A DNA stretch of 64,000 nucleotides. Source: Acidilobaceae archaeon. GTDB taxonomy: Archaea; Thermoproteota; Thermoprotei_A; Sulfolobales; Acidilobaceae. Location: positions 95,358 through 159,357 of the forward strand of contig JAWBBK010000001.1 of NCBI GenBank assembly GCA_038824665.1, given 5' to 3'. The position numbers were made by a program, and so were the translations under genes. The notes under the pieces were generated by a model. The model made no database searches. It was not told where the DNA came from and was given only the letters and a program-made list of their open reading frames with translations. Every line of letters begins with the position of its first letter. The stretch's first letter is position 1. Below, piece after piece: positions 1-53,068 of this stretch.

Positions 1-993
1 AAGCCCATATCCGATGTGCTTCAACTCTTGAGACAGGAGTTTTCGATCACTGACAACATAAAGCTGAAGAGGACCAGACAAGCGGTTAAGAGAGCTCTTA
101 GCGGAGCCATAGAAAGACTTCAAATGATTCCGAAGACTCCTCCCAACGGTTTGGTAGTCTTCTGTGGAGAGAACATGAATACAGGAGACTTCATCTGTCT
201 CATCTTTTCTCCGCCAGAGAAAGTTCCAGTGTTTTATTATAGAACGGAGAAGGAGTTCATACTCTCGTTCTTAGAAGACATGATTGAAGAGAAGGAGGCA
301 GTAGGGATAATCATTGTAGAAAGAGACCAAGCTACTATAGGCTTGTTGAAAGGAGGCAAGATAGAAGTTCTCGAAGAGCTCGAAGGCTTCGTTCCTGGCA
401 AACACGAAAAGGGAGGACAGAGCCAGAGGAGATACGAAAGGATCATAGAGCAAATGGTAGACGACTTCTTTAAGAAGGTTGGAGAAGTAGCGAACAACAA
501 ATTCCTCCCGCTTCTTGAAAAGAACGTACTCAAAGCGGTGATAATAGCGGGTCCAGGTTACGCAAAACAGGACTTCATCAAAGGAGGCTATCTGGACTAT
601 AGGTTAGCTCAGCTAGTCTCTAAAGAGCTAGTAGACGTAGCTTACCAGAGCTACGAAGGACTCAAAGAGGCAGTGATGAAAGCAAAAGATGTGATACAGG
701 CTCAGCTCTACAGAGAGGCTGTGGAGACTCTTGAGGAGTTCAAGCTTCATCTAGTTCAGATGACAGGCATGTCTATTTACGGAGACAAAGAGGTCAAATT
801 AGCTCTTGAGATGGGGTCTGTGAAGACTCTCTTGATTCACGAGCTTAGAGAAGATAAAGACATTTGGAAACAGGAAGGCGAATCTAAAGGAGCTAAAGTG
901 GTGATAGTGCCAGCTGGCGTTCCTGAAGCTCAATGGTTTCTTGAGACTTTTGGAGGTCTAGCTGGCATTTTGAGGTACAAAATCCAATATTAG
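1..993 (+). CDS. prf1: Peptide chain release factor aRF1 (N-terminus cut off by window edge)
   Basis: The frame is open from base 1. GGQ motif present (KGGQSQRRYERI). A NIKS-like motif reads ITDNIKLKRTR near the start. Overall aRF1/eRF1 domain order. Confidence 0.9.
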   Translation, partial: KPISDVLQLLRQEFSITDNIKLKRTRQAVKRALSGAIERLQMIPKTPPNGLVVFCGENMNTGDFICLIFSPPEKVPVFYYRTEKEFILSFLEDMIEEKEAVGIIIVERDQATIGLLKGGKIEVLEELEGFVPGKHEKGGQSQRRYERIIEQMVDDFFKKVGEVANNKFLPLLEKNVLKAVIIAGPGYAKQDFIKGGYLDYRLAQLVSKELVDVAYQSYEGLKEAVMKAKDVIQAQLYREAVETLEEFKLHLVQMTGMSIYGDKEVKLALEMGSVKTLLIHELREDKDIWKQEGESKGAKVVIVPAGVPEAQWFLETFGGLAGILRYKIQY

Positions 994-2135: not shown

Positions 2136-2579
2136 TCAGCTTTCTGGAGCTTCGCCACAGAGTTCTAGAACTTCAGCATAAACCTTAACTAAAGCCGCTC
2201 TGACAGGAGCTATCAGGTCTTCTTCGCTCGAGTACTCTCTTAAGAGATTACTGACCTCATCTCTAAGCTTACAGGCATCCATTACAGCCGCTATGTTCTC
2301 GCTTCTGCTTAGATCGTCAATAAAAGCCTTGAGCTTGCTTATGAGCCCGCCTAGAGCGATCTTCCAAATTTTGAGTCGCATAGCTTCTACGTCCGGTTCC
2401 GCTAGTTTAGAGAGCCTTTTCTCTAAGTTCTCTAGCTTCTCGTAGTGTTTGATGAGGTAATCTAGAACTCCTTTGAGTTCCTCTATATCAGCTCCTGTCA
2501 TTTGCCCTCTGTCACGGAAGGGAAGCGAAAGGTAATAGATATCTTCGCGTATTGGATGGTGCGACAGCTGTTTTAACAT
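2136..2579 (-). CDS. Hypothetical helical protein
   Basis: 147-aa ORF in a tight gene array with no recognisable motif. Confidence 0.4.
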   Translation of the reverse strand: MLKQLSHHPIREDIYYLSLPFRDRGQMTGADIEELKGVLDYLIKHYEKLENLEKRLSKLAEPDVEAMRLKIWKIALGGLISKLKAFIDDLSRSENIAAVMDACKLRDEVSNLLREYSSEEDLIAPVRAALVKVYAEVLELCGEAPES

Positions 2580-2716: not shown

Positions 2717-5080
2717 GTGTTTGAGGTCTTGAAAAAACAAAGAGAACTGCTAGACAGACTTTTGACAGTAGCTCGAGAGAAGTGGTACGTGTTCAGCTTC
2801 CTGCTCTTAATCGCCTTAGTAGCTGGAGGAGCTTATTTGAGGTTGCTTCCAGCGATCAACTACGGTCTCGAGCTAGACGAAGCAGATCCCTTCATAATGT
2901 ACTACATAGCTAAACACTTTCACGAAAGAGGCTTGTTCTCTTTTAGCGAACTTGAAAAACAGGACCTCTTTTGGTATCCCATAGGGAGAGACTTACTTAG
3001 AGGAGAGTACATAGGAGTTGGATGGTTGGCAGCAGCCACATATCGTTTAATCTCCTTAACGTTCGATATAACTTTGCGCGAATGGGTAGCTCTTCAGCCA
3101 GTGATAGTGTATGTGCTTACATGCATAATAATGTATGTCCTAGTGTTGAGACTTACTGGATCTCATAGCGGAGCACTTGTAGCCGTGGCTTTTTGTTCGC
3201 TGATCCCTTCAGCGCTTTCTAGAACGACTGTAGGCTTCGTGGAGAAGATGACCATAGCTTTTATGCCCATAGCGTTACACTATCTTTTGCTTTACGAAGC
3301 TCTAATTGCTAAGTCTTTGATCCGTTCTCTCGCTTTCGCTGGACTGGCTGGACTCGTTGGCGGCTCTGTGGCCTTCATATGGGGCGGCTATCACTACGTA
3401 GCTGTCTCGCTAGCGCTCGTTATCCTCTTAGACTTCCTAGTTTATGAATCTCCTAGCGGGAAACGAGCTCTAGCTTATGGGATCGCTTTAGGCTTCATGG
3501 CTTTAGCTATCTCTGTCTCTCCTGCAGTGACGCTAGCGTATTTCGTTAAAGGGTTAGGTCTAGCTCCTCTAGCTTCGTTTGTCATGTACTTGACCGTTCT
3601 AGCGTGGAAGACCTTAGGTCTGGACGAGAAGCTGTTTCCTTACACAAGGCTTCAACATCTATGGCTTATGACTTCAGCAGTTGTACTCGCAGTCCTCATG
3701 ATCTATTTAGGAGTTTTAGAAGTTCCTGGAAGAATTCTCTTAGCTCTAGGGATAAGAGGTTTTAGCCCTTTAGCTGAAAGCGTTAGCGAACATCAGCCTC
3801 TAGGATTTCAAACCGTTTTGTTAGAACTAGGTCTTCCGATGTTTTTCGTTTCAATTGGACTGTTTCATATAGCTAGAGCTTCCTATTTAAGGAGAGGAGG
3901 TCCTTCCGAGCACGTAGAGCTAGTCTTGAACCTAATGGCTTTAATGATGATCTATGCTAGCGCTAACATGTCCTATTTCCTCCAAACAGCGGTCTTCTAC
4001 GCTTCTTTAGCTTCGGGCGCTTCTGTAGGCGTCTTGATAAAGGCCTATTTGTTCCCTGCTGAGGAGGTGTCGACAAGACGTGTGAAAGCTAAGAGTAGCT
4101 CTCCGTATTCCGACTTAAAGCTTACAATAACCATTGCCTTCACGACTCTGCTCATACTTTACTTAGCCTATAGCGCTCACGTTGGATATGGGGTCAACAG
4201 TCTCAGAGCTCCTCAGATACTCACCTCAGGACTTAGCCCTCTCGCTATTGGCGAAAAGACTGTGGTGCCTCTCAATAAGGCTTGGATCTGGACTCTCGAG
4301 TACTTAAAGTACAACACCTCAAGAGATGATGTCATAGTCAGCTGGTGGGACTATGGTTATTGGATCTCTGTTGACGCGAACAGAAGGACTATAGCTGACG
4401 GCTCGACATGGAATGAGACTCACATCAGGTTGTTGGCCAACGTGCTGACAGGCTCTGAAGAAGAGGCAGTAGCGCTCATGAGACTTTTAGGTCTTCAACC
4501 AAACAAAACCTATCTGGTCTTCTACGAGGTCTTCATATTATACTCAGAAGAGTCTGGAGTGCTCCATTACGCTTTCTTGTTACCTAACGTGAGGAGCGAC
4601 AGAACTATGTACTACGTGGTTCACGGTCTTGCAGACTTTCCCAAATCATTTCAGATGTTGAAGATAGCCTATAGAGTAGACCCTGGAGTTCAAAGCTTCG
4701 TTGAGACAAACTATTACTCAATGACTCAAGGACCTAGAGGAACTAGCTATATGTTTCCAGGGCTTGCAGGAAGTCCTGCGAATAACGTAGAGCGGGTCAC
4801 ATCAACACTCCTTTACAAACTGGCTATGCATGGAGTCGCAGAGCTACCTGAAAAGTGTTTCGGGAGATGCGATTTTCTAAACAAAACGAGCTTTACCGTA
4901 CCTGCAGTTCTAGACCCAGCTACTGGCGCTCCTCACTTCATCTTCGTAGACCCTCCTCAAAGATTCGAACTTGAAGCAGTAGTTCTCGACGTGTTTTATG
5001 AAGTAAAGCAGGAAACTCATGTTGAGAGATACGCTGTTCTAGTCTTCATATATAAATGGGTAGAGCGAGGTTCGCGCTAA
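2717..5080 (+). CDS. aglB: Archaeal oligosaccharyltransferase AglB (STT3 family)
   Basis: WWDYGYWI (WWDYG) catalytic motif; an N-terminal domain with about 13 TM helices followed by a soluble C-terminal domain; GTG start. Confidence 0.9.
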   Translation: MFEVLKKQRELLDRLLTVAREKWYVFSFLLLIALVAGGAYLRLLPAINYGLELDEADPFIMYYIAKHFHERGLFSFSELEKQDLFWYPIGRDLLRGEYIGVGWLAAATYRLISLTFDITLREWVALQPVIVYVLTCIIMYVLVLRLTGSHSGALVAVAFCSLIPSALSRTTVGFVEKMTIAFMPIALHYLLLYEALIAKSLIRSLAFAGLAGLVGGSVAFIWGGYHYVAVSLALVILLDFLVYESPSGKRALAYGIALGFMALAISVSPAVTLAYFVKGLGLAPLASFVMYLTVLAWKTLGLDEKLFPYTRLQHLWLMTSAVVLAVLMIYLGVLEVPGRILLALGIRGFSPLAESVSEHQPLGFQTVLLELGLPMFFVSIGLFHIARASYLRRGGPSEHVELVLNLMALMMIYASANMSYFLQTAVFYASLASGASVGVLIKAYLFPAEEVSTRRVKAKSSSPYSDLKLTITIAFTTLLILYLAYSAHVGYGVNSLRAPQILTSGLSPLAIGEKTVVPLNKAWIWTLEYLKYNTSRDDVIVSWWDYGYWISVDANRRTIADGSTWNETHIRLLANVLTGSEEEAVALMRLLGLQPNKTYLVFYEVFILYSEESGVLHYAFLLPNVRSDRTMYYVVHGLADFPKSFQMLKIAYRVDPGVQSFVETNYYSMTQGPRGTSYMFPGLAGSPANNVERVTSTLLYKLAMHGVAELPEKCFGRCDFLNKTSFTVPAVLDPATGAPHFIFVDPPQRFELEAVVLDVFYEVKQETHVERYAVLVFIYKWVERGSR

Positions 5081-10890: not shown

Positions 10891-12162
10891 CTAGCTCCTC
10901 AGTTCTTTCAAGAACTTGAGAGCTAGAGGAAGCACTTTGTAACCTCCTTCTATCAAGCCCAGACTTCCGTTTCGGAACGACTTTTCCTCAAATCTTCTCT
11001 TCTCTGGAAGGCTCGGGTGTGAAAACATGAGCGGCACGGGGTCGTCAGTGTGAGTCCTCCTATTCCAAGGTGTGGCGTGGTCTGAGGTAACTACAAACAG
11101 CACCTTTTCTCTATCTATAGCGTCTAAAACCCTTGAGAAAAACAAGCGGTCTATCTCTTCTACAGCTTTCACCTTTTCTTCGAAATCTCCATCATGACCT
11201 GGCTCATCAGGTCCCTTTAGATGTACGTAGATAGCGTCATATCTCTCTAGAGCCTCAAGAACTATTCTAGAACTTTCCTTCAAGAGTTCAGCTCTGTGAG
11301 ACACGAGAGGGAGTTCGAGAACGTCTATTCCAAAAGCCTTGAAGATCCCTATCTCTACAGGCATTTCAGCAACTCCAGCTATATTAATCCCGAACTTCTC
11401 TTTAGCTGAGGGAGCTTTGGGGAGACTGTCTCCAGCGTCTCTCACGAGCACAGCGTTTGCTGGAGGCAACCCTTTAGAGATCCTCTTGAGGTTGATTGGA
11501 TGACTCGAGAGTATCTTAGCGGCTCTTTCTAGAAACTCGTTAGCGAGTTCAGCAGCGAGTTTGGCTTCGGGACTATCGTCTAGCGGCTCTACTTTGGAGA
11601 TACGTAGCGATTGAGGCTTTACGGCTACACTAAGCTTGCCTACTCTCACGTAAGCTGGGTCGTTGTTCGTTACGTTTCCGCTCAGCTTCTTAGAGCTATG
11701 CTCTAAAACCAAGACTGCTCTGTGTCCAACAGTTGCTTTGAATCTAGCTATTGCAGTCTTCCCTCCTAACATCATTCCATCTAGAGCCTCAGCTAACGCT
11801 CTAGCTTCCTCTGTCGAAAGGCTTCTTCCAACCCTTCTGTCTTTGATCTCTCCGGTGTTCTCATCTATGGTGGCGAAGTTTGCTCTAAAAGCAACGGTTC
11901 CCTCTCTTACTTCTAACCCAGCTCCTAGAGCTTCAAGAGGTCCTCGACCTGTGTAATAGATTCTGGGGTCGTAGCCTAGCAGAGACATAACTGCAGCGTC
12001 GCTCTCAGGGGCTACTCCTTTTTCTACAACATACAGAAGCCCGCTGAGACAGCTTTCAGCGAGATAGTCGAGGTTTGGTTTATGAGCTTCTTCTAAAACC
12101 CTTCTTGAACTCTCTAAACCGTCTGGAGCTCCATCTAAGACTACATATAGAATCTTGACCAT
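10891..12162 (-). CDS. apgM: 2,3-bisphosphoglycerate-independent phosphoglycerate mutase (archaeal ApgM type)
   Basis: MVKILYVVLDGAPDG N-terminus and the GHDGD and TSDHATP motifs. The start was moved to the ATG at 12162 because the longer ORF runs into the tRNA-iMet gene. Confidence 0.85.
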   Translation of the reverse strand: MVKILYVVLDGAPDGLESSRRVLEEAHKPNLDYLAESCLSGLLYVVEKGVAPESDAAVMSLLGYDPRIYYTGRGPLEALGAGLEVREGTVAFRANFATIDENTGEIKDRRVGRSLSTEEARALAEALDGMMLGGKTAIARFKATVGHRAVLVLEHSSKKLSGNVTNNDPAYVRVGKLSVAVKPQSLRISKVEPLDDSPEAKLAAELANEFLERAAKILSSHPINLKRISKGLPPANAVLVRDAGDSLPKAPSAKEKFGINIAGVAEMPVEIGIFKAFGIDVLELPLVSHRAELLKESSRIVLEALERYDAIYVHLKGPDEPGHDGDFEEKVKAVEEIDRLFFSRVLDAIDREKVLFVVTSDHATPWNRRTHTDDPVPLMFSHPSLPEKRRFEEKSFRNGSLGLIEGGYKVLPLALKFLKELRS

Positions 12163-47047: not shown

Positions 47048-47278
47048 ATGAAGCAAAAACAGAAGAAGCCAAAGGACCAGCTGTTCATTATTCTTATAAT
47101 GTTAAAGGTAGCTTTGACGCTGGTTTTAGCGGTTGCAGGAACTCTCCTAGCTGTACTCGGCAGTGAGGTAAGGTCCTCAGTTTTGATCGTAGTTGGCTTT
47201 ATCATCATCGCTTTTTCTCCTGTTCTATCATACGTGCTTATTCACATGATTTTGGTCAAGAGGCTTTATGGTTTGTGA
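47048..47278 (+). CDS. Small membrane protein (2 TM)
   Basis: 76-aa ORF with a Lys-rich N-terminus followed by two hydrophobic helices. Confidence 0.4.
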   Translation: MKQKQKKPKDQLFIILIMLKVALTLVLAVAGTLLAVLGSEVRSSVLIVVGFIIIAFSPVLSYVLIHMILVKRLYGL

Positions 47279-47292
47279 GGAGAGAATAGACG

Positions 47293-47349
47293 GGACGCGG
47301 GGAGCGCGGCTCCAAAGCCCCGCATCCTGGGCCGCTAGACGACCCGGCT
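47293..47349 (-). tRNA. Split tRNA-Gln(UUG), 5' half (positions 1-37) plus 3' trailer
   Basis: The minus strand from 47349 reads AGCCGGG-UC-GUCU-AGCGGCCCA-GGAU-G-CGGGG-CUUUGG, then the trailer A-GCCGC-GCU-CCCCGCGUCC. No T arm or 3' acceptor strand follows. The trailer is complementary to the leader at 52176-52192. Confidence 0.85.
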
Positions 47350-47375
47350 ACCGATTCTAGACCGCTTCTAGGACG

Positions 47376-47383
47376 CTTAAAAG
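47376..47383 (-). promoter_or_regulatory. TATA-like box upstream of the tRNA-Gln 5' half
   Basis: The minus strand reads CTTTTAAG, located 27-34 nt upstream of tRNA position 1. The region is shared with the divergent 47440 gene. Confidence 0.35.
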
Positions 47384-47439
47384 CTTGAAGTTTAAAAGAC
47401 GATCTAGAACACGAGAGCTGAAAAAGAGGTACATAGGTC

Positions 47440-48405
47440 TTGAAGAAAGTAGAGTTCGTGAGAAGAGTACAGCTTTTGGGTAAGTCTACCTATGCTGTGA
47501 CCCTACCTAAAGAATGGGCTAGACTTCACGGACTTACGAGAGGCTCAAAGGTATTTATGGAGGTCATGTCTGACGGGAGTCTGAGGATTAAGCTCGCTCC
47601 GTTATTGCATGAGTATAGAGCCAGCAGATACATAAAGTTCTCTTCGAACGAAGAAGCAGACCAGGTATTCTTTGAGGTCGCTTCTGCTCTAATATCGGGT
47701 TACGACTTTGTGATCGTATCATTCAATGAACTAACGTCTAGCTATATCAAAGCCTTTTGTGACAAACTGTCTCGTCTAGTTCCAGGACTTCAGGTCGAAC
47801 AGGAAGGTTTTGAGGTTAAGATCTCAACTTTAGGAGAGAGGAGTTCAAGAACTCTCGAAACACGTGTATCGTTAGTTGTAAAGCTCTTAGCTGAGGCTTT
47901 GAAGTCTCCAGACAAGCTGTCCTTAGCTGTGCTGGCTTTTAGTGACTTCAGGAAGACAGTAATAGAGTATGAGCTTCACAAAAGGTCTAGCCTTATATCA
48001 GGCGTTCATGAACTTCCGCTCGTGAGTCTACGTAGCCTCTCCGTTATTCTTCATCAAATCAAAGACTTGACAGTTGCGTATAGAACTCTCAGGCTTGTTG
48101 CCGAAAGTCCCAAAACAGAAAGAAAGGCTTTGGATTCGATAGAAGTGGTTGGAAGTCTGCTAGCAGATCTCTTTTGGTCAATAATAAAGGTCTTCAATAA
48201 CCCTTCTGAAGAAACGTACAGAGGAGTTCTGAGAGCGTACTCAAAATTGGTCAAAGAGATTGAGAAGTCGCGAGAGTTCTGTAGCGAAGAGATCAAAGCT
48301 CATCTCGAGAACATTCTCGTAGGTTTAGAGGATTTAATGCTAGAACTAGGAATTTATGTCTCAGTTTTAAAGATTGCGAGCGCTAGTTTTGAAGACACTT
48401 CTTAA
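47440..48405 (+). CDS. AbrB/SpoVT-domain DNA-binding protein with PhoU-like helical C-terminal domain
   Basis: The N-terminus VQLLGKSTYAVTLPKEWARLHGLTRGSKVFMEV is a swapped-hairpin AbrB-type motif, followed by a long helical region. TTG start. Confidence 0.6.
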   Translation: MKKVEFVRRVQLLGKSTYAVTLPKEWARLHGLTRGSKVFMEVMSDGSLRIKLAPLLHEYRASRYIKFSSNEEADQVFFEVASALISGYDFVIVSFNELTSSYIKAFCDKLSRLVPGLQVEQEGFEVKISTLGERSSRTLETRVSLVVKLLAEALKSPDKLSLAVLAFSDFRKTVIEYELHKRSSLISGVHELPLVSLRSLSVILHQIKDLTVAYRTLRLVAESPKTERKALDSIEVVGSLLADLFWSIIKVFNNPSEETYRGVLRAYSKLVKEIEKSREFCSEEIKAHLENILVGLEDLMLELGIYVSVLKIASASFEDTS

Positions 48406-48452
48406 TTTAATCACTTCTTAACTCAATGTTGGGGTCTTCAGACTAACGATTT

Positions 48453-49844
48453 TCAATGAAAATCTACCACCTTTATTATGTCGGAATTCTCTAACCTTTC
48501 CGCCTTCAAGTATCTATACGATACCTCTCTGAGGTCTTGGTTATTTCCATGGATCATTACGGTGTGGAGCCTTGCGTTCGCTTTAGAGAGAGCGCTTTTT
48601 ACGACGTTTACATTGATTTTATCCTCTCCATCTGAGATCAAAATGATATCGCTAACTCCTTTAGTTTCTCTACCTTTAACTATATCGTTGCAGGCGATAA
48701 GTACGGCTCTCATTATATCGGTACCGCCTCCGGCAGTTACTTTGGCCAAGCTGAGAAGAGCTCTGACCACCTCAGAGGCGTAAGGGTTGCTTTTCACTTT
48801 AGTCAGTTCGTAAGGAACGGAGTCAAAATATCTTGCGTAAAAAGCTCTAGACTCTCCAATAGCTCTTTTAAGTAGAGCTACAGCTACAGCTCGAGCCCAG
48901 TCTATCTTCTCTCCCACCATGCTTCCACTTTTATCTAACAGGACATAGATGGGACCTCTCGATACCTCTTCATGTTTTGAGTACAAAAGCAGTCTCGATT
49001 CAGCAAACGCGATCATAAAGTACGTTGAAGGTAACGCTAGTTGAGAGTAGTGCAGTCTCTCGAGGTCGCTACCTATTTCTATTCCTTCAGCCCAACCTTT
49101 CCTAAATCTGATTTTCTTTCCCTTAACGCCGGGGATGTCCAGACCTTCTATTCTCTCTAATATCTTAGCTATGTCCGTTAGTCTCGCTAATTTAAGCACC
49201 TCTTCTGCTGAATCTTCAAAGCTAAGAACGGATCCCGTACCGGCCAGTTTGGAGAGAAGTTCTGATTTAATCTTCTTGGCGGTTTCGGTATCTCTTAGAG
49301 CCTGGTCTAAAGCTTCGTTTAATACATCCTCCAGACTATCTAGAGCGTCTCCTTCTCCGTCGCTTTTCAAACCAGAGCGGTCTTTTGACGAATTTTTTTC
49401 GTCACTCTCATTTTCGCTTGAGTCTTTTCTTCCAAATCCTTTCTCGCTTAGAAAGTGAACGAGTTTATCAAGTATTGAGGCAGCGGCTACAGTACTGACT
49501 AGGCTGTCAGCAACAGTATAGACTCTTATACGGTGTAGTTTGGGATTTTTCAGCAATTGGGCAATTATGTTATATCTTTCTATATATTCATCATCATGTT
49601 CCTCATTCTCTTCACTTTCCTCTAACATTGGAATCGGTAGGTTAAGAACGTAAAAGAGGTCTGTAGCTAGCTCAGGTCTGAGGAGACCGCGTCCTTCAAT
49701 AGCGTTCTCTTTGGGTGAGAGATCTCCACGAAGAGTGTTCCTGAGTTCAATAACTGTACGAATTACTCTCTCTCCTCTATACATCTTCAGCTCGTCTAGA
49801 ACTCCTACACCCATTACAGTGCTTTTCTTAAACCTCAATGACAA
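48453..49844 (-). CDS. von Willebrand factor A (VWA) domain protein
   Basis: C-terminal VWA domain with the MIDAS motif LLDKSGSM and GGGTD, plus an acidic linker. Immediately downstream of the MoxR-like ATPase. Confidence 0.75.
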   Translation of the reverse strand: MSLRFKKSTVMGVGVLDELKMYRGERVIRTVIELRNTLRGDLSPKENAIEGRGLLRPELATDLFYVLNLPIPMLEESEENEEHDDEYIERYNIIAQLLKNPKLHRIRVYTVADSLVSTVAAASILDKLVHFLSEKGFGRKDSSENESDEKNSSKDRSGLKSDGEGDALDSLEDVLNEALDQALRDTETAKKIKSELLSKLAGTGSVLSFEDSAEEVLKLARLTDIAKILERIEGLDIPGVKGKKIRFRKGWAEGIEIGSDLERLHYSQLALPSTYFMIAFAESRLLLYSKHEEVSRGPIYVLLDKSGSMVGEKIDWARAVAVALLKRAIGESRAFYARYFDSVPYELTKVKSNPYASEVVRALLSLAKVTAGGGTDIMRAVLIACNDIVKGRETKGVSDIILISDGEDKINVNVVKSALSKANARLHTVMIHGNNQDLREVSYRYLKAERLENSDIIKVVDFH

Positions 49845-49848
49845 CCCC

Positions 49849-51084
49849 TTAGCTAAGTTTAGAGTTTATTACATCAAGCAATTCGTCTATGCTGTCTAAA
49901 ATCTCGGAGTAAATCCTTCTAACCTCTTCATCCTCTTCGAAGTCTTTAACTAAGCTTACGACTCTGTTCCTTGCACTTCTCAGACTTCTGCTATAGTCTA
50001 TGAGGCGAGGATCGAAGGGAGGTAGACTTCTGATCTTATTAGTAGCCAGCTTGACGTTAGCTTTGATCTCACTGAGTTCTCTTAAAACTCTATCCTTAGT
50101 CTTCAGTTCGTCCATGAGTATTACGGTTATCTTTTCGAAGTCTTCAATAGTTTTTGGCGCAACATATTTTATAACGATCAGGTCGTCAACAGAAGCGGAG
50201 ATCCTTCCATTGATTACTGCGTGAGCGGCTATGACCTTCATGAGCTTTCCCTTTCTTCTATCCGTTAGATGTATGCTCTTTGATTCCAAGGCTAAGAGTA
50301 ACTTGAGGATGTGATTTTTCACGTTCTCTAGATTTACTGAAAGCACAATCTTGTTGATGTTCTTTAAGTCCTCCATAGTCATGAGTGGTTTTGAGGTAGG
50401 TATGTCTCCACGCTCTATCTTCCAGCTGGCATCTAGAAGTCTAGACCAGAGTTCTTGGCTGAGAGGTTTTACATAAGTTCTTAATAAGAACCTATCGTAG
50501 AGCGCTTCTGTTTCAGGGTCTTCAGGCACTTTATTGGAGGCTCCAAAGAGACTCCAAAGCTTTGTCCTTATCTCCACATATCCATCGTATATTACACGTT
50601 CCATCATTAAACTCAACAAACAGTTCAGAACCGCGCTACTAGCGTTGAAGATCTCGTCGAGAAACGCTATCTCGGCTTCTGGTAGTTTGTCTTTAGTGAT
50701 TCTAACATAAGAACCTTTTAGTAAAGCGTTTACATCAAGAGGTCCGAAGAGTTCGCTGGGCTCAGTATATTTGGTTAACAGGTACTTGAAGAACTTAGCG
50801 TTAAGAAGGTCTGAAGCTCTTCTAACCAAAGCGCTCTTAGCAGTGCCTGGTTCTCCTATCAAGACAGCGTGCTCTCCTGTGAGAAGCGCTAGAGTTATTA
50901 GCAGTACCTCTTCCTGTCTTCCTACAAAGGGAGCTTCGAGTTCGTTCATAAACTTCCGAATTTTAGCCAAAGCCGAATCAAGAGAACGGCTCATACCTTC
51001 AGAGTTCTGTTCCTCCTTAAGATGAGTGGGTTTCAGAGAGCGCTCTAGACTTTTGTAGGTTTCTGGCTGAAAAACAGACACCAA
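49849..51084 (-). CDS. MoxR/RavA-like AAA+ ATPase
   Basis: Walker A GEPGTAKS and Walker B IAFLDEIF. The start may be the ATG at 50994 (MSRSLD) rather than the TTG at 51084. Confidence 0.8.
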   Translation of the reverse strand: MVSVFQPETYKSLERSLKPTHLKEEQNSEGMSRSLDSALAKIRKFMNELEAPFVGRQEEVLLITLALLTGEHAVLIGEPGTAKSALVRRASDLLNAKFFKYLLTKYTEPSELFGPLDVNALLKGSYVRITKDKLPEAEIAFLDEIFNASSAVLNCLLSLMMERVIYDGYVEIRTKLWSLFGASNKVPEDPETEALYDRFLLRTYVKPLSQELWSRLLDASWKIERGDIPTSKPLMTMEDLKNINKIVLSVNLENVKNHILKLLLALESKSIHLTDRRKGKLMKVIAAHAVINGRISASVDDLIVIKYVAPKTIEDFEKITVILMDELKTKDRVLRELSEIKANVKLATNKIRSLPPFDPRLIDYSRSLRSARNRVVSLVKDFEEDEEVRRIYSEILDSIDELLDVINSKLS

Positions 51085-51143
51085 CTCACCCCGAACTCTG
51101 CTGACTTAATTAAGGATAAACCCAAAGTAATTTAATTTAACTC

Positions 51144-52115
51144 TCAACTAGTCGTGGCGCGTTCTACAAAAGTCTCTACGATAAGAGCTGTCGTTAAAAG
51201 AAGCAGGGCCGACCTAGAGAAGTGTGCGTTCTCGCTTAGGATTTTCATGATTTCTTCGTTTCCTTCTTTTAAAGACTTAAGAATTCTTAGAGCATAGGGA
51301 ATAGGAAGGAGGGTCAGTAGAGCTACAAGTGGACTCACTATCTCTTTTATCGTAGATAGCAACAAGGACAACACAAAAATCATCAGTACGAGAAAGTAGC
51401 CTATCCACACCTTTTCTTTGAGGAGAATTGGAAGAGTCCTTCTTCCATACTTGATGTCAACTTTGACATCAGCTAAATGGTTTATATAAAGCGTGATTGT
51501 TGAGAGAGCCCCATATGTTGCTCCTAAAAAGATTGCTGATGTGTGGAGTTCCTTAGTAGCTACGTAGGCACAACCGAGAAACACTAGAACACTCCTCATA
51601 AAGGCTCCGAACTCTCCTAGTCCAAGTCTAAGCAGATAGGGATCATAGAGCAATATTATCAAGGCTCCAGCGATTACAAACAACAAGAGCACAAGACCGT
51701 AGAGAGCGCTAAGATATAGCCCTATAGAAAGGGCAACTATGAAGGTGAGTGTAGCTAAGACAAAGGCTTCAGTCAAAGAGATCTTCCCTTCAACTAAGAT
51801 CTTTGTCCCTCCGCTAAAAGGAGTCTTTAAAGTCTCTCTGTCTAGTCCGCTTTTATAGTCCTGTATTTCGTTGAGAGCGTTTACGCTGAGGTGAGCGAGC
51901 GTGACTCCAATAACGGCCAAGATTGATTCAAAAATAATACACTCTTCTGTTGTTTTACAACCATAGAAAATACCTCCTAAGCCTGCCAGTATAGTGCTAA
52001 GAGAGGTCTCAGGTCGCAAAAATCTCCAGTAAACACCGAACTTTTCTTTCCAGATCGGAATCTTCAGAAAAGATAGAACGATATTGTTTAAACTCTTCTT
52101 AATAAGTGATGTCAT
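51144..52115 (-). CDS. UbiA-family (MenA-like) aromatic prenyltransferase
   Basis: NEIQDYKSGLD (NxxxDxxxD-type) motif and about 9 TM helices. Confidence 0.75.
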   Translation of the reverse strand: MTSLIKKSLNNIVLSFLKIPIWKEKFGVYWRFLRPETSLSTILAGLGGIFYGCKTTEECIIFESILAVIGVTLAHLSVNALNEIQDYKSGLDRETLKTPFSGGTKILVEGKISLTEAFVLATLTFIVALSIGLYLSALYGLVLLLFVIAGALIILLYDPYLLRLGLGEFGAFMRSVLVFLGCAYVATKELHTSAIFLGATYGALSTITLYINHLADVKVDIKYGRRTLPILLKEKVWIGYFLVLMIFVLSLLLSTIKEIVSPLVALLTLLPIPYALRILKSLKEGNEEIMKILSENAHFSRSALLLLTTALIVETFVERATTS

Positions 52116-52145
52116 TTGAGTCCCTTAAAGAACAAATAGTTCAAG

Positions 52146-52153
52146 CTTTTTAG
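52146..52153 (+). promoter_or_regulatory. TATA-like box upstream of the tRNA-Gln 3' half
   Basis: CTTTTTAG lies 23-30 nt upstream of the first leader nucleotide (52176). It is in the 60-bp divergent spacer shared with the UbiA-family gene. Confidence 0.3.
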
Positions 52154-52171
52154 TTTGGAGATTTATACACT

Positions 52172-53068
52172 CTAAGGACGCGGGGTAGCGGCGGAGAGCC
52201 CCCGTGACCGGGGTTCGAATCCCCGCCCGGCTACCAATACTTTACAATAGCTTTCTTTCTCGAGATCACTCTCTCTAAGACCTCCACGAAAGTTTTTTGA
52301 CAGATCCTTTTTTCCTATTACTATAAAACGCGAAGGCTCAGGATATGTCCTTTCGAGAGCTTGTTCGATCACGTCTTCTCTAATGACCTCAACTAGCTGG
52401 TGTCTTGAAATTATGTGACCAAAACATATATCACTTTCCAACATGGCTTTTGTATATCTCTTCGGATAGTGAGGTCCTCCGAAAGCCGTTGCAGACATGC
52501 AGTTAGGAAGACCTTCTTCTAATTTGTTTACGACGTTGCTTACAGTAAGAGCCAGAGCGAGGATTGCTTTCATATCTCTCCATTGTTCCTCACAGCTACC
52601 TACCTCGATGAAGACTAGAGGCTTCTTTGATCCTGTGGGTCCGTGGTGAGTAGCTTCAAGAGTAACCTCATAAGTACTATCTAATTTGAGCTCTTGAGAA
52701 AGCTTGAAGTAGTAGAAAATAAGAGCTTTAGCTAGAGCAGGATAAGAAACGCCTAGTTCGAACGGCTTTCCCCCATTTGTTAGACTTGTAGGGTTTCCAA
52801 CGTGATGAACACTAAGCGTGCCTCTACACTCGCGAGAAGCGTGGCGAGAGAGCGCTATAAGAGGTCTTACTTCACTTCTAGGACTTACGTCAAGAATCTC
52901 TAAATCTAAGAGTTCTTGTTCGTAGCCGGCTATTAGTCCTCCCTCATAGCGATAACACTCTTTGGCTCCAGGACAGGTCGAAGGACTAGCTCTGAGATGT
53001 TCTACGAGCAGTTTTGAAGCTGAGACTCCTACAGGATCTTTTACCGAATATACTATGTCTATCTCCAT
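52172..53068 (-). CDS. dtdA: D-aminoacyl-tRNA deacylase, archaeal DTD2 type
   Basis: MEIDIVYSVKDPVG N-terminus and the LSRHASR, HHVGN and ATHHGPT motifs. The last ~21 codons are antisense to the tRNA-Gln 3' half. Confidence 0.7.
   Translation of the reverse strand: MEIDIVYSVKDPVGVSASKLLVEHLRASPSTCPGAKECYRYEGGLIAGYEQELLDLEILDVSPRSEVRPLIALSRHASRECRGTLSVHHVGNPTSLTNGGKPFELGVSYPALAKALIFYYFKLSQELKLDSTYEVTLEATHHGPTGSKKPLVFIEVGSCEEQWRDMKAILALALTVSNVVNKLEEGLPNCMSATAFGGPHYPKRYTKAMLESDICFGHIISRHQLVEVIREDVIEQALERTYPEPSRFIVIGKKDLSKNFRGGLRESDLEKESYCKVLVAGRGFEPRSRGLSAATPRP
52176..52236 (+). tRNA. Split tRNA-Gln(UUG), 5' leader plus 3' half (positions 38-76, CCA encoded)
   Basis: Leader GGACGCGGGG-UA-GCGGC-GGAG-AG, then C-CCCCG-UGAC-CGGGG-UUCGAAU-CCCCG-CCCGGCU-A-CCA. 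The acceptor 3' strand is the exact complement of AGCCGGG at 47343-47349. Confidence 0.85.

Follow-up and report, generated by a model that had tools for sequence, protein, structure and literature searches.

Whether tRNAs were first put together from halves ('split-early') or divided by secondary breakage ('split-late') is a debate in which split tRNA genes play a central part. That question is raised by a 64-kb stretch of DNA from an Acidilobaceae archaeon (positions 95,358–159,357 of contig JAWBBK010000001.1, assembly GCA_038824665.1; 'the window' throughout), in which two half-genes of tRNA-Gln(UUG) lie divergently, 4.9 kb apart. Are the halves spliced in trans, and how did the gene come to be broken? 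A first-pass annotation of the window had proposed a single ~4.9-kb inversion with one breakpoint inside an intron of the ancestral gene. Having read the 64-kb window for this genome and 20-kb loci for its relatives (designated by L numbers), we consider it likely that the pair is a genuine trans-spliced tRNA-Gln(UUG) and that a contiguous gene was broken at its intron by rearrangement in the common ancestor of the window species and its relative L001.

The 5' exon (47312–47349, minus strand; AGCCGGGTCGTCTAGCGGCCCAGGATGCGGGGCTTTGG), an exact pattern match, holds positions 1–37: the 5' strand of the acceptor stem, the D arm, the 5' strand of the anticodon stem, C32, U33, the UUG anticodon and, as its last base, G37. 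It is followed by a GC-rich, 21-nt trailer (47291–47311, minus strand; AGCCGCGCTCCCCGCGTCCCG) that pairs with the leader of the 3' half, in keeping with the strand and the trailer end at ~47293 given by the first-pass annotation, and then by a pyrimidine-rich stretch and the stop codon of the small open reading frame (ORF) TM76. The 3' half lies on the plus strand and begins, as had been reported, at 52176, with a GC-rich leader complementary to the trailer (52176–52198, plus strand; GGACGCGGGGTAGCGGCGGAGAG). The final 6 nt of this leader (GGAG and AG) form part of the central helix and the 3' bulge of a bulge–helix–bulge (BHB) motif. The 3' exon (52199–52236, plus strand; CCCCCGTGACCGGGGTTCGAATCCCCGCCCGGCTACCA), also an exact pattern match, comprises C38, the 3' strand of the anticodon stem, a 4-nt variable loop, the T arm, the 3' strand of the acceptor stem, A73 and an encoded CCA. 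When joined, the exons were called as a canonical 76-nt tRNA-Gln(ttg). Neither half was called in the window by ARAGORN or by Rfam at gathering thresholds, Rfam with relaxed thresholds gave weak T-arm matches only, and neither program found an intact tRNA-Gln(UUG) in the 64 kb. Both halves thus escape standard tRNA finders, and tRNA-Gln(UUG) would seem to be missing from annotated genomes of this clade.

The complementarity of trailer and leader, already noted in the first-pass annotation, was borne out by a predicted duplex of −35.8 kcal/mol, equalled or beaten by 4 of 1,000 shuffles, and no second copy of either sequence was found in the window. Co-folding of the two precursors formed the acceptor stem in trans, lengthened the anticodon stem by C32–U35:GGAG pairs and placed a 3-nt bulge with the G37|A cut site opposite an AG|C38 bulge, followed by a trailer/leader helix of 5 bp and 10 bp. 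An hBHBh' motif is predicted at the exon boundaries of both the window and L001 (three central-helix pairs, a 3-nt bulge and a helix in the co-fold); by inspection, the central helix is C32–U35:GGAG and the bulges are G36 G37|A and AG|C38. The pair has a complete joined cloverleaf, complementary GC-rich flanks and a BHB motif, and neither piece is flanked in the window by traces of the half that it lacks. At the level of sequence, the window case bears every mark by which members of the archaeal split tRNA family are recognized.

Each half also has a putative promoter of its own. A TATA/BRE (B recognition element)-like box, AAGCTTTTAA (47377–47386, minus strand), lies 28–37 nt 5' of the 5' exon and is the candidate promoter of that half, and a second, AAGCTTTTTA (52143–52152, plus strand), stands 24 nt 5' of the leader in the corresponding role for the 3' half. 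As the first-pass annotation had pointed out, the 3' half adjoins the A/T-rich spacer of a gene for a UbiA-family prenyltransferase; the box found in that spacer also lies 28 nt upstream of the divergent UbiA start codon, with the same layout in L001, and is possibly a bidirectional promoter serving both the UbiA gene and the 3' half. It is plausible that the 3' half captured or shares the UbiA promoter. An AAGCTTTTWA-type box occurs 24–34 nt upstream of all four half-genes of the window and L001, and that of the 5' half keeps its spacing in L001. The 10-mer has five copies in the window against 0.9 expected, two of the five being upstream of the halves, and the two upstream boxes of the window agree at 13 of 14 positions (TTCAAGCTTTTWAG).

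The nearest relative with a long contig, L001 (GCA_038897215.1, 1.16-Mb contig), has the same split. Its proteins are 95% (EF-1alpha), 88% (S7), 82% (MoxR), 65% (DtdA) and 42% (AbrB) identical to those of the window. As in the window, the L001 3' half has UbiA on one side and dtdA, encoded on the other strand, on the other, while its 5' half directly follows the TM76 ortholog, and the junctions TM>|<5' half and <3' half|UbiA> (arrowheads give direction) are common to both genomes. Both exons are 100% identical between the two species. The L001 trailer (AGCCGGCCCCGCGCCCCGCTCTC) and leader (GATCGCGGGGCGCGGGGCGGCAGGGAG) are unlike those of the window, yet are complementary to one another (−44.7 kcal/mol, equalled or beaten by 1 of 1,000 shuffles), and cross-species trailer/leader pairs are no better than shuffles. 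Because the flanks co-vary and both the BHB motif and the upstream box are conserved, these features argue that the halves are functional in the window species and in L001.

The L001 geometry is different. One strand carries both halves there, the 3' half coming first and the 5' half 8.1 kb downstream of it, beyond nine genes (UPPS, DUF373, S7, a 91-aa ORF, SSB, two unnamed ORFs, NUDIX and dtdA). The UbiA–MoxR–VWA–AbrB block of L001 has the orientation seen in the window relative to dtdA and the 3' half, and is then followed by EF-1alpha and not by the 5' half. With all shared blocks counted, the window and L001 are four inversions apart in this region.

We regard it as very improbable that the two pieces are dead fragments, left as a rearrangement scar or by complementary decay of a duplicate, with a functional tRNA-Gln(UUG) elsewhere. 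The genome view of 64 kb, the partial tRNA fragments known in Aeropyrum pernix (PMC3218864) and the near-identity of the window's two upstream boxes would allow such a reading; against it, the exons are perfectly conserved despite strongly diverged intergenic DNA and proteins, the trailer co-varies with the leader, the window species and L001 both retain the BHB motif and the promoter boxes, and neither piece has a remnant of the missing half beside it. Duplication and decay, raised by the match between the boxes, was set aside, given the lack of a flanking remnant and the resemblance of the box to a general promoter consensus. An integrated mobile element was rejected, as there is no integrase among the four intervening genes and no duplicated tRNA segment. 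Nor is this a permuted tRNA gene: the window halves are on opposite strands, and in L001 the order is permuted but 8.1 kb and nine genes intervene.

For a trans-spliced pair, sequence combined with established knowledge of archaeal split tRNAs suggests the following mechanism. Each half would be transcribed from its own TATA-like box, and the two RNAs would anneal via the 15–17-bp GC-rich trailer/leader helix, the acceptor stem and the anticodon stem to form the hBHBh' motif. The splicing endonuclease would then cut after G37 and before C38, and RNA ligase would join the exons into the 76-nt tRNA.

The state of the gene before the split can be read from relatives. In at least ten other Acidilobaceae and Desulfurococcales species, a contiguous tRNA-Gln(UUG) convergent with dtdA occupies the position and strand of the window 3' half. 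This gene is intron-less beside dtdA in L004–L010, L022 and L027, and carries a 13–24-nt intron at 37/38 in L018, L020 (Acidilobus sp.), L024, L026 and L033. The 5' exon of the split gene differs by 1–2 nt from the contiguous orthologs and the 3' exon is identical to them; the window and L001 keep only the 3' half at the dtdA position, and synteny breaks inside the tRNA. A profile search of genome contigs with a DtdA alignment returned, among the matches listed, only outgroups and neither the window species nor L001. The DtdA tree groups the split species (window, L003, L001 and L088) in one clade, nested among contiguous ones and sister to the intron-less L004, L006, L008 and L009, with the intron-bearing Acidilobus-like group basal. 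For L003 (DtdA 74%) and L088 (56%), short Logan contigs stop inside the 3' exon and the split state is unreadable from them; the contigs of ingroup species beyond the window and L001 are 1–1.6 kb long.

A contiguous, syntenic ortholog is what distinguishes a 'recently split' (derived) tRNA sensu Chan et al. 2011, and the dtdA locus has one. Because the contiguous ortholog lies at the same locus and the introns of relatives lie at the same 37/38 position, the split is, on this comparison, derived from a contiguous gene at the dtdA locus, at the intron-bearing position of relatives, and is not ancient. The first-pass annotation had called it recently split; derived it is, but because L001 has both halves and both novel junctions, the split is neither recent nor specific to the window, and the flanks of the halves have since diverged and co-varied. 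The contiguous, intron-containing tRNA-Gln(UUG) that the annotation expected beside dtdA in relatives was found, with introns at 37/38, but the closest outgroups proved intron-less.

The most elaborate contiguous state is that of L011 (9929–10173, minus strand; JALVJB010000116.1), which has a 169-nt insert at 37/38 of its dtdA-linked tRNA-Gln(UUG). On either side of an A/T-rich core that contains TTTTAAAA, the insert has GC-rich arms of ~24 bp complementary to each other, and the cis fold has the same BHB-plus-long-helix architecture (−111.3 kcal/mol, z = −6.5). It is either an unusually long hairpin intron or the sign of two adjacent half-genes like those of A. pernix tRNA-Asp. Neither the L011 arms and core nor the window trailer and leader recurred in the DNA compared in the manner of a mobile repeat.

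Other relatives vary further in their tRNA-Gln genes. L094 (~1225–1333; Joint Genome Institute (JGI) metagenome contig Ga0190313_1035684) has a contiguous tRNA-Gln(UUG) gene that encodes no CCA, does not adjoin dtdA and has a 19-nt intron, AGCCTCACGCGGCGGAGAA; the ends of this intron (AGCC...GCGGCGGAGAA) match the start of the window trailer and the end of the leader. Position 33 of tRNA is almost universally U; the intron-containing tRNA-Gln(UUG) of L018, L020, L024, L026 and L033 reads GGGGCCTTGG, which places C at position 33, and in these five precursors C33 pairs with G in the BHB central helix. A lone tRNA-Gln(UUG) 5' half is found in L095 (~211–270, plus strand) and L096 (~4180–4256, minus strand) (JGI Ga0326760_1007916 and Ga0080008_164392; GC 55%), where it has a trailer, AGCCTCGGCCGCTGCCCGC, and a T-rich tail and adjoins a FEN-1 gene. 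No 3' half was found there within 2.7–4 kb, and the lone half apparently represents a further split tRNA-Gln, from another organism and with other neighbouring genes. L017 (~2340–2520, minus strand) has a tRNA-Gln 3' exon after a long GC-rich leader and, farther upstream, both a TATA-like box and a CTG-bearing fragment that resembles the anticodon arm alone; neither the 5' acceptor strand nor a D arm was detected at this locus, which may hold a gene with several introns or a tRNA-Gln(CUG) broken at a different position. A possible non-coding RNA lies between the intact tRNA-Gln of L004 and the next gene: a ~240-nt GC-rich, structured-looking stretch (~11080–11320) of a spacer that is A/T-rich elsewhere.

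Was the break made by a single inversion? Inverting 47290–52177 rebuilds one gene, and the geometry is exact, as the first-pass annotation claimed, but the same holds for any halves on opposite strands, so this is weak evidence; what makes the arrangement notable is the proximity of the halves. The sister clade is arranged Cpn60> GT4> pst operon> PhoU> AbrB/PhoU> tRNA-Gln> <dtdA <NUDIX MoCF> TM> <SOD SSB>. Outgroup AbrB/PhoU genes are co-directional with the tRNA, whereas the inversion model predicts a divergent one, and the outgroup ortholog of TM76 lies on the dtdA side, 2.4 kb off, after the MoCF gene and beside NUDIX–dtdA. Outgroup MoxR–VWA pairs were found 7 kb away on the NUDIX side only (L023), on the dtdA contig but ~210 kb off, among unrelated genes and without UbiA or AbrB (L006), or likewise isolated (L092). 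Because none of the 80 outgroup dtdA loci has the four-gene block and MoxR–VWA lies elsewhere there, the block is an ingroup novelty.

For the four markers shared by the three arrangements, at least three inversions separate the outgroup order from the window and four separate it from L001, with two between the window and L001. The window keeps the divergent NUDIX/SSB arrangement of the outgroups ('<dtdA <NUDIX .. SSB>'). Because of this and the fewer inversions from the outgroup, the window order is probably nearer to the split-clade ancestor, and its 4.9-kb divergent geometry is probably close to that of the common ancestor of the window species and L001; it cannot be shown to stem directly from a single inversion. 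The two junctions expected of the 4.9-kb inversion would also result from inverting 2.4 kb on the dtdA side, and both models require a TM|UbiA adjacency that was not observed. The single 4.9-kb inversion cannot be confirmed and is one of several equally parsimonious histories.

Several observations weigh against breakage of an intron-containing gene by rearrangement as we reconstruct it. None of the 80 dtdA-anchored outgroup loci has the four-gene block, in the opposite orientation predicted by the first-pass annotation or in any other, and none has UbiA, MoxR or VWA on the tRNA side of dtdA. TM|UbiA adjacency occurs in no outgroup, SOD following TM there, and with the outgroup order three inversions from the window and four from L001, no history made up of one event is seen. 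The sister clade (L004, L006, L008 and L009) is intron-less, so an ancestral intron requires loss there or gain in the split clade; the DtdA tree that defines this clade is a single-gene, neighbour-joining tree. As for trans-splicing itself, an intact tRNA-Gln(UUG) could lie outside the 64-kb window.

How the two junctions arose admits more than one history. In the exact form of the first-pass proposal, an ancestor ordered TM> UbiA> MoxR> VWA> <AbrB tRNA-Gln(intron)> <dtdA underwent one inversion of the 4.9-kb block with the 5' exon, and the 3' half took over the UbiA promoter spacer. Its geometry is exact, both predicted junctions are present and conserved in L001, and a TATA-like box stands between UbiA and the leader; the window is nearer than L001 to the outgroup order (three versus four inversions), the '<dtdA <NUDIX .. 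SSB>' order common to window and outgroups would let the window geometry be the ancestral post-split state, and the sister clade, too, has an AbrB/PhoU homolog 5' of its intact tRNA. We nevertheless think it unlikely: no genome with an intact gene has UbiA, MoxR or VWA beside tRNA-Gln in either orientation, the L006 MoxR–VWA pair lies ~210 kb from dtdA and has neither UbiA nor AbrB as a neighbour, outgroup AbrB/PhoU is co-directional with the tRNA, outgroup MoCF–TM is beside NUDIX and not upstream of UbiA, and in L001 the halves are on the same strand with the 5' half not adjoining AbrB. Inversion of the other side is, in our estimate, a poor prospect as well. From tRNA-Gln> <dtdA <NUDIX MoCF> TM> | UbiA>..., ~2.4 kb from the intron to past TM would be inverted to give 5' half> <TM <MoCF NUDIX> dtdA> <3' half UbiA>, and later inversions would yield the L001 and window orders. 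This history rests on a NUDIX | MoCF–TM adjacency observed in at least four outgroup genomes, where only 2.4 kb separates the anticodon from the 3' end of TM; it yields both conserved junctions, and in the block analysis one more inversion gives the exact L001 order. It still needs an unobserved ancestor with UbiA downstream of TM, however, and leaves the window ~4 further inversions away, and the divergent NUDIX/SSB arrangement common to window and outgroups argues that the L001 order is derived.

In a different sequence of events, rearrangement would be the consequence of the split and not its cause: a hairpin intron of the L011 type gained an internal terminator and promoter, splitting the gene in place, and rearrangement later separated the adjacent halves at no cost. 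The 169-nt insert of L011 at the orthologous locus, with its ~24-bp arms and A/T-rich core containing TTTTAAAA, fits such an origin, as do the adjacent tRNA-Asp halves of A. pernix, ~160 nt apart and listed as trans-spliced (PMC3218864), and the essential 3' half would not have lost its promoter upon inversion. But L011 is not the closest relative, its insert may be a plain long cis-spliced intron, and the 3' half now has its putative promoter in the UbiA spacer and not in an intron-loop remnant; we see this order of events as possible but doubtful.

We favour breakage at the intron by rearrangement. The ancestor would have had a contiguous tRNA-Gln(UUG) convergent with dtdA, and trailer and leader would most likely derive from a 37/38 intron with a lengthened hairpin, as in L011. 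Genome rearrangement would have broken the gene at this intron in the common ancestor of the window species and L001, the two shared junctions being the expected leavings of one reciprocal inversion between the intron and the TM|UbiA spacer. The inverted segment could be either the 4.9-kb four-gene block or the 2.4-kb dtdA–NUDIX–MoCF–TM segment, and several further inversions would have reshuffled the region since. The one-step history of the first-pass annotation is not supported by this comparison, given the three or more inversions between the outgroup order and the window and the co-directional AbrB/PhoU of the sister clade.

For the four genes between the halves, Pfam agrees with the first-pass annotation. 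An AbrB/SpoVT–PhoU-like regulator with a MazE/AbrB domain (47440–48405, plus strand) is divergent from the 5' half and 26% identical over its full length to the L006 gene 5' of the intact tRNA-Gln. It is followed by genes for a VWA-domain protein (48453–49844, minus strand), a MoxR-type AAA+ ATPase (49849–51084, minus strand) and the UbiA-family prenyltransferase (51144–52115, minus strand), which is divergent from the 3' half at a junction kept in L001. A 669-aa MoxR homolog from a Thermoprotei metagenome-assembled genome (P0223) has LAGLIDADG/intein-type domains (PF14528 and PF14890), which suggests an intein inserted in its MoxR ATPase family. Beyond the 5' half, the 3' end of TM76, a small membrane-protein ORF (47048–47278, plus strand), abuts the trailer, again at a junction kept in L001. 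Between 40224 and 47048, the window has an extra trp-operon block (trpA, trpB and upstream genes; minus strand) compared with L001 (1734–2600), as well as ~550 nt of non-coding DNA between GT4 and TM76. It lacks the MoCF-biosynthesis gene, which precedes TM76 in L001 and outgroups, and no remnant of it was found between trpB and TM76.

Beyond the 3' half lies dtdA, the gene for archaeal D-aminoacyl-tRNA deacylase (52172–53068, minus strand), convergent with the 3' half and the ancestral anchor of the tRNA-Gln locus; its protein is 100% identical to one from a metagenome-assembled genome labelled 'Acidilobaceae archaeon'. The window dtdA is frameshifted ~45 codons from its end (+2 and −1 nt near an A run; region 52172–52330), and the annotated ORF consequently runs antisense through the tRNA 3' exon. 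Another frame preserves the conserved DtdA C-terminus (...KKAIVKYW*), whose TGG-TAG end overlaps the tRNA ACCA, likewise in L003. A second assembly of the same species (L090/P0001; GCA_039001355.1, JAWBFB010000035.1) encodes the same shifted DtdA; the frameshift could be real or a homopolymer error. The L090 contig breaks inside the tRNA 3' exon or the dtdA end, and the locus may be hard to assemble or heterogeneous in the population.

A broader and more tentative idea is that living Acidilobaceae still show, at the tRNA-Gln locus linked to dtdA, the successive steps by which a contiguous gene becomes split. The path would lead from an intron-less gene through a short 37/38 intron and a long GC-clamped hairpin with an A/T-rich, promoter-like core (L011) to the trans-split state, an end state occurring in several geometries (the window, L001 and the lone 5' half of L095/L096). 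If true, growth of an intron hairpin would pre-adapt a tRNA gene to survive a chromosomal breakpoint, and inversions in the intron-rich tRNA genes of crenarchaea would predictably yield split tRNAs as a by-product, which would then be neither rare accidents nor relics.

The window adds an isoacceptor and position, tRNA-Gln(UUG) at 37/38, and a family, Acidilobaceae, to the known split tRNAs; no report of a split tRNA-Gln in Acidilobaceae was found in the literature. Its assets are an unusually clear contiguous, syntenic ancestor and two diverged species with co-varying arms and different gene orders, and the long hairpin of L011 is a possible intermediate. The case would strengthen the split-late, rearrangement-driven view and offers material on how a tRNA survives breakage. 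That evolutionary message, split-late with rearrangement at an intron site, is already established, and the Acidilobaceae case agrees with it; what it adds is a richer series of states at one orthologous locus and a species pair that shares the split and differs in geometry.

Among known systems, Nanoarchaeum equitans reportedly has a split tRNA-Gln(UUG), in work attributed to Randau et al. 2005, and Caldivirga maquilingensis is said to have split and tri-split tRNAs, after Fujishima et al. 2009. The N. equitans gene is the same isoacceptor in two half-genes, with similar GC-rich complementary flanks and joining by splicing endonuclease and ligase, but it is split at 32/33 with halves ~63 kb apart (coordinates in PMC3218864), and because its lineage is unrelated the event is independent. 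C. maquilingensis resembles the window species as a free-living crenarchaeon with trans-spliced tRNAs split at the intron positions of relatives (PMC4033280); it has many split genes with shared pieces, whereas the window has one tRNA in two pieces and a clear contiguous, syntenic ancestor. As of a 2014 review, trans-spliced tRNAs were counted in seven archaeal genomes (PMC4033280).

The closest parallels are the 'recently split' tRNA-Asp and tRNA-Lys of Desulfurococcales, described from the same kind of evidence (Chan, Cozen & Lowe 2011, PMC3218864). The tRNA-Lys(CUU) of Staphylothermus marinus and Staphylothermus hellenicus has halves 4.8 kb apart with the 3' half upstream (PMC3218864), and is like the window pair in this spacing, in its handful of intervening genes, in being shared by two species and in its complementary leader and trailer. 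It is split at 30/31 and not at 37/38, and its region is fully syntenic between the two species, whereas at least two to four inversions around the halves separate the window from L001. The tRNA-Asp(GUC) of Thermosphaera aggregans and A. pernix belongs to the same major crenarchaeal branch (Desulfurococcales/Acidilobales), is likewise split at 37/38 and has a contiguous, syntenic ortholog in relatives, Desulfurococcus kamchatkensis among them, and its T. aggregans halves are on opposite strands ('split and inverted'), like those of the window (PMC3218864). The window differs in its amino acid and anticodon (Gln, UUG), in halves 4.9 kb and four genes apart instead of ~160 nt, and in a split common to two diverged species with different geometries, and the Gln locus shows a graded series from no intron through a short intron and a 169-nt hairpin to the trans-split state.

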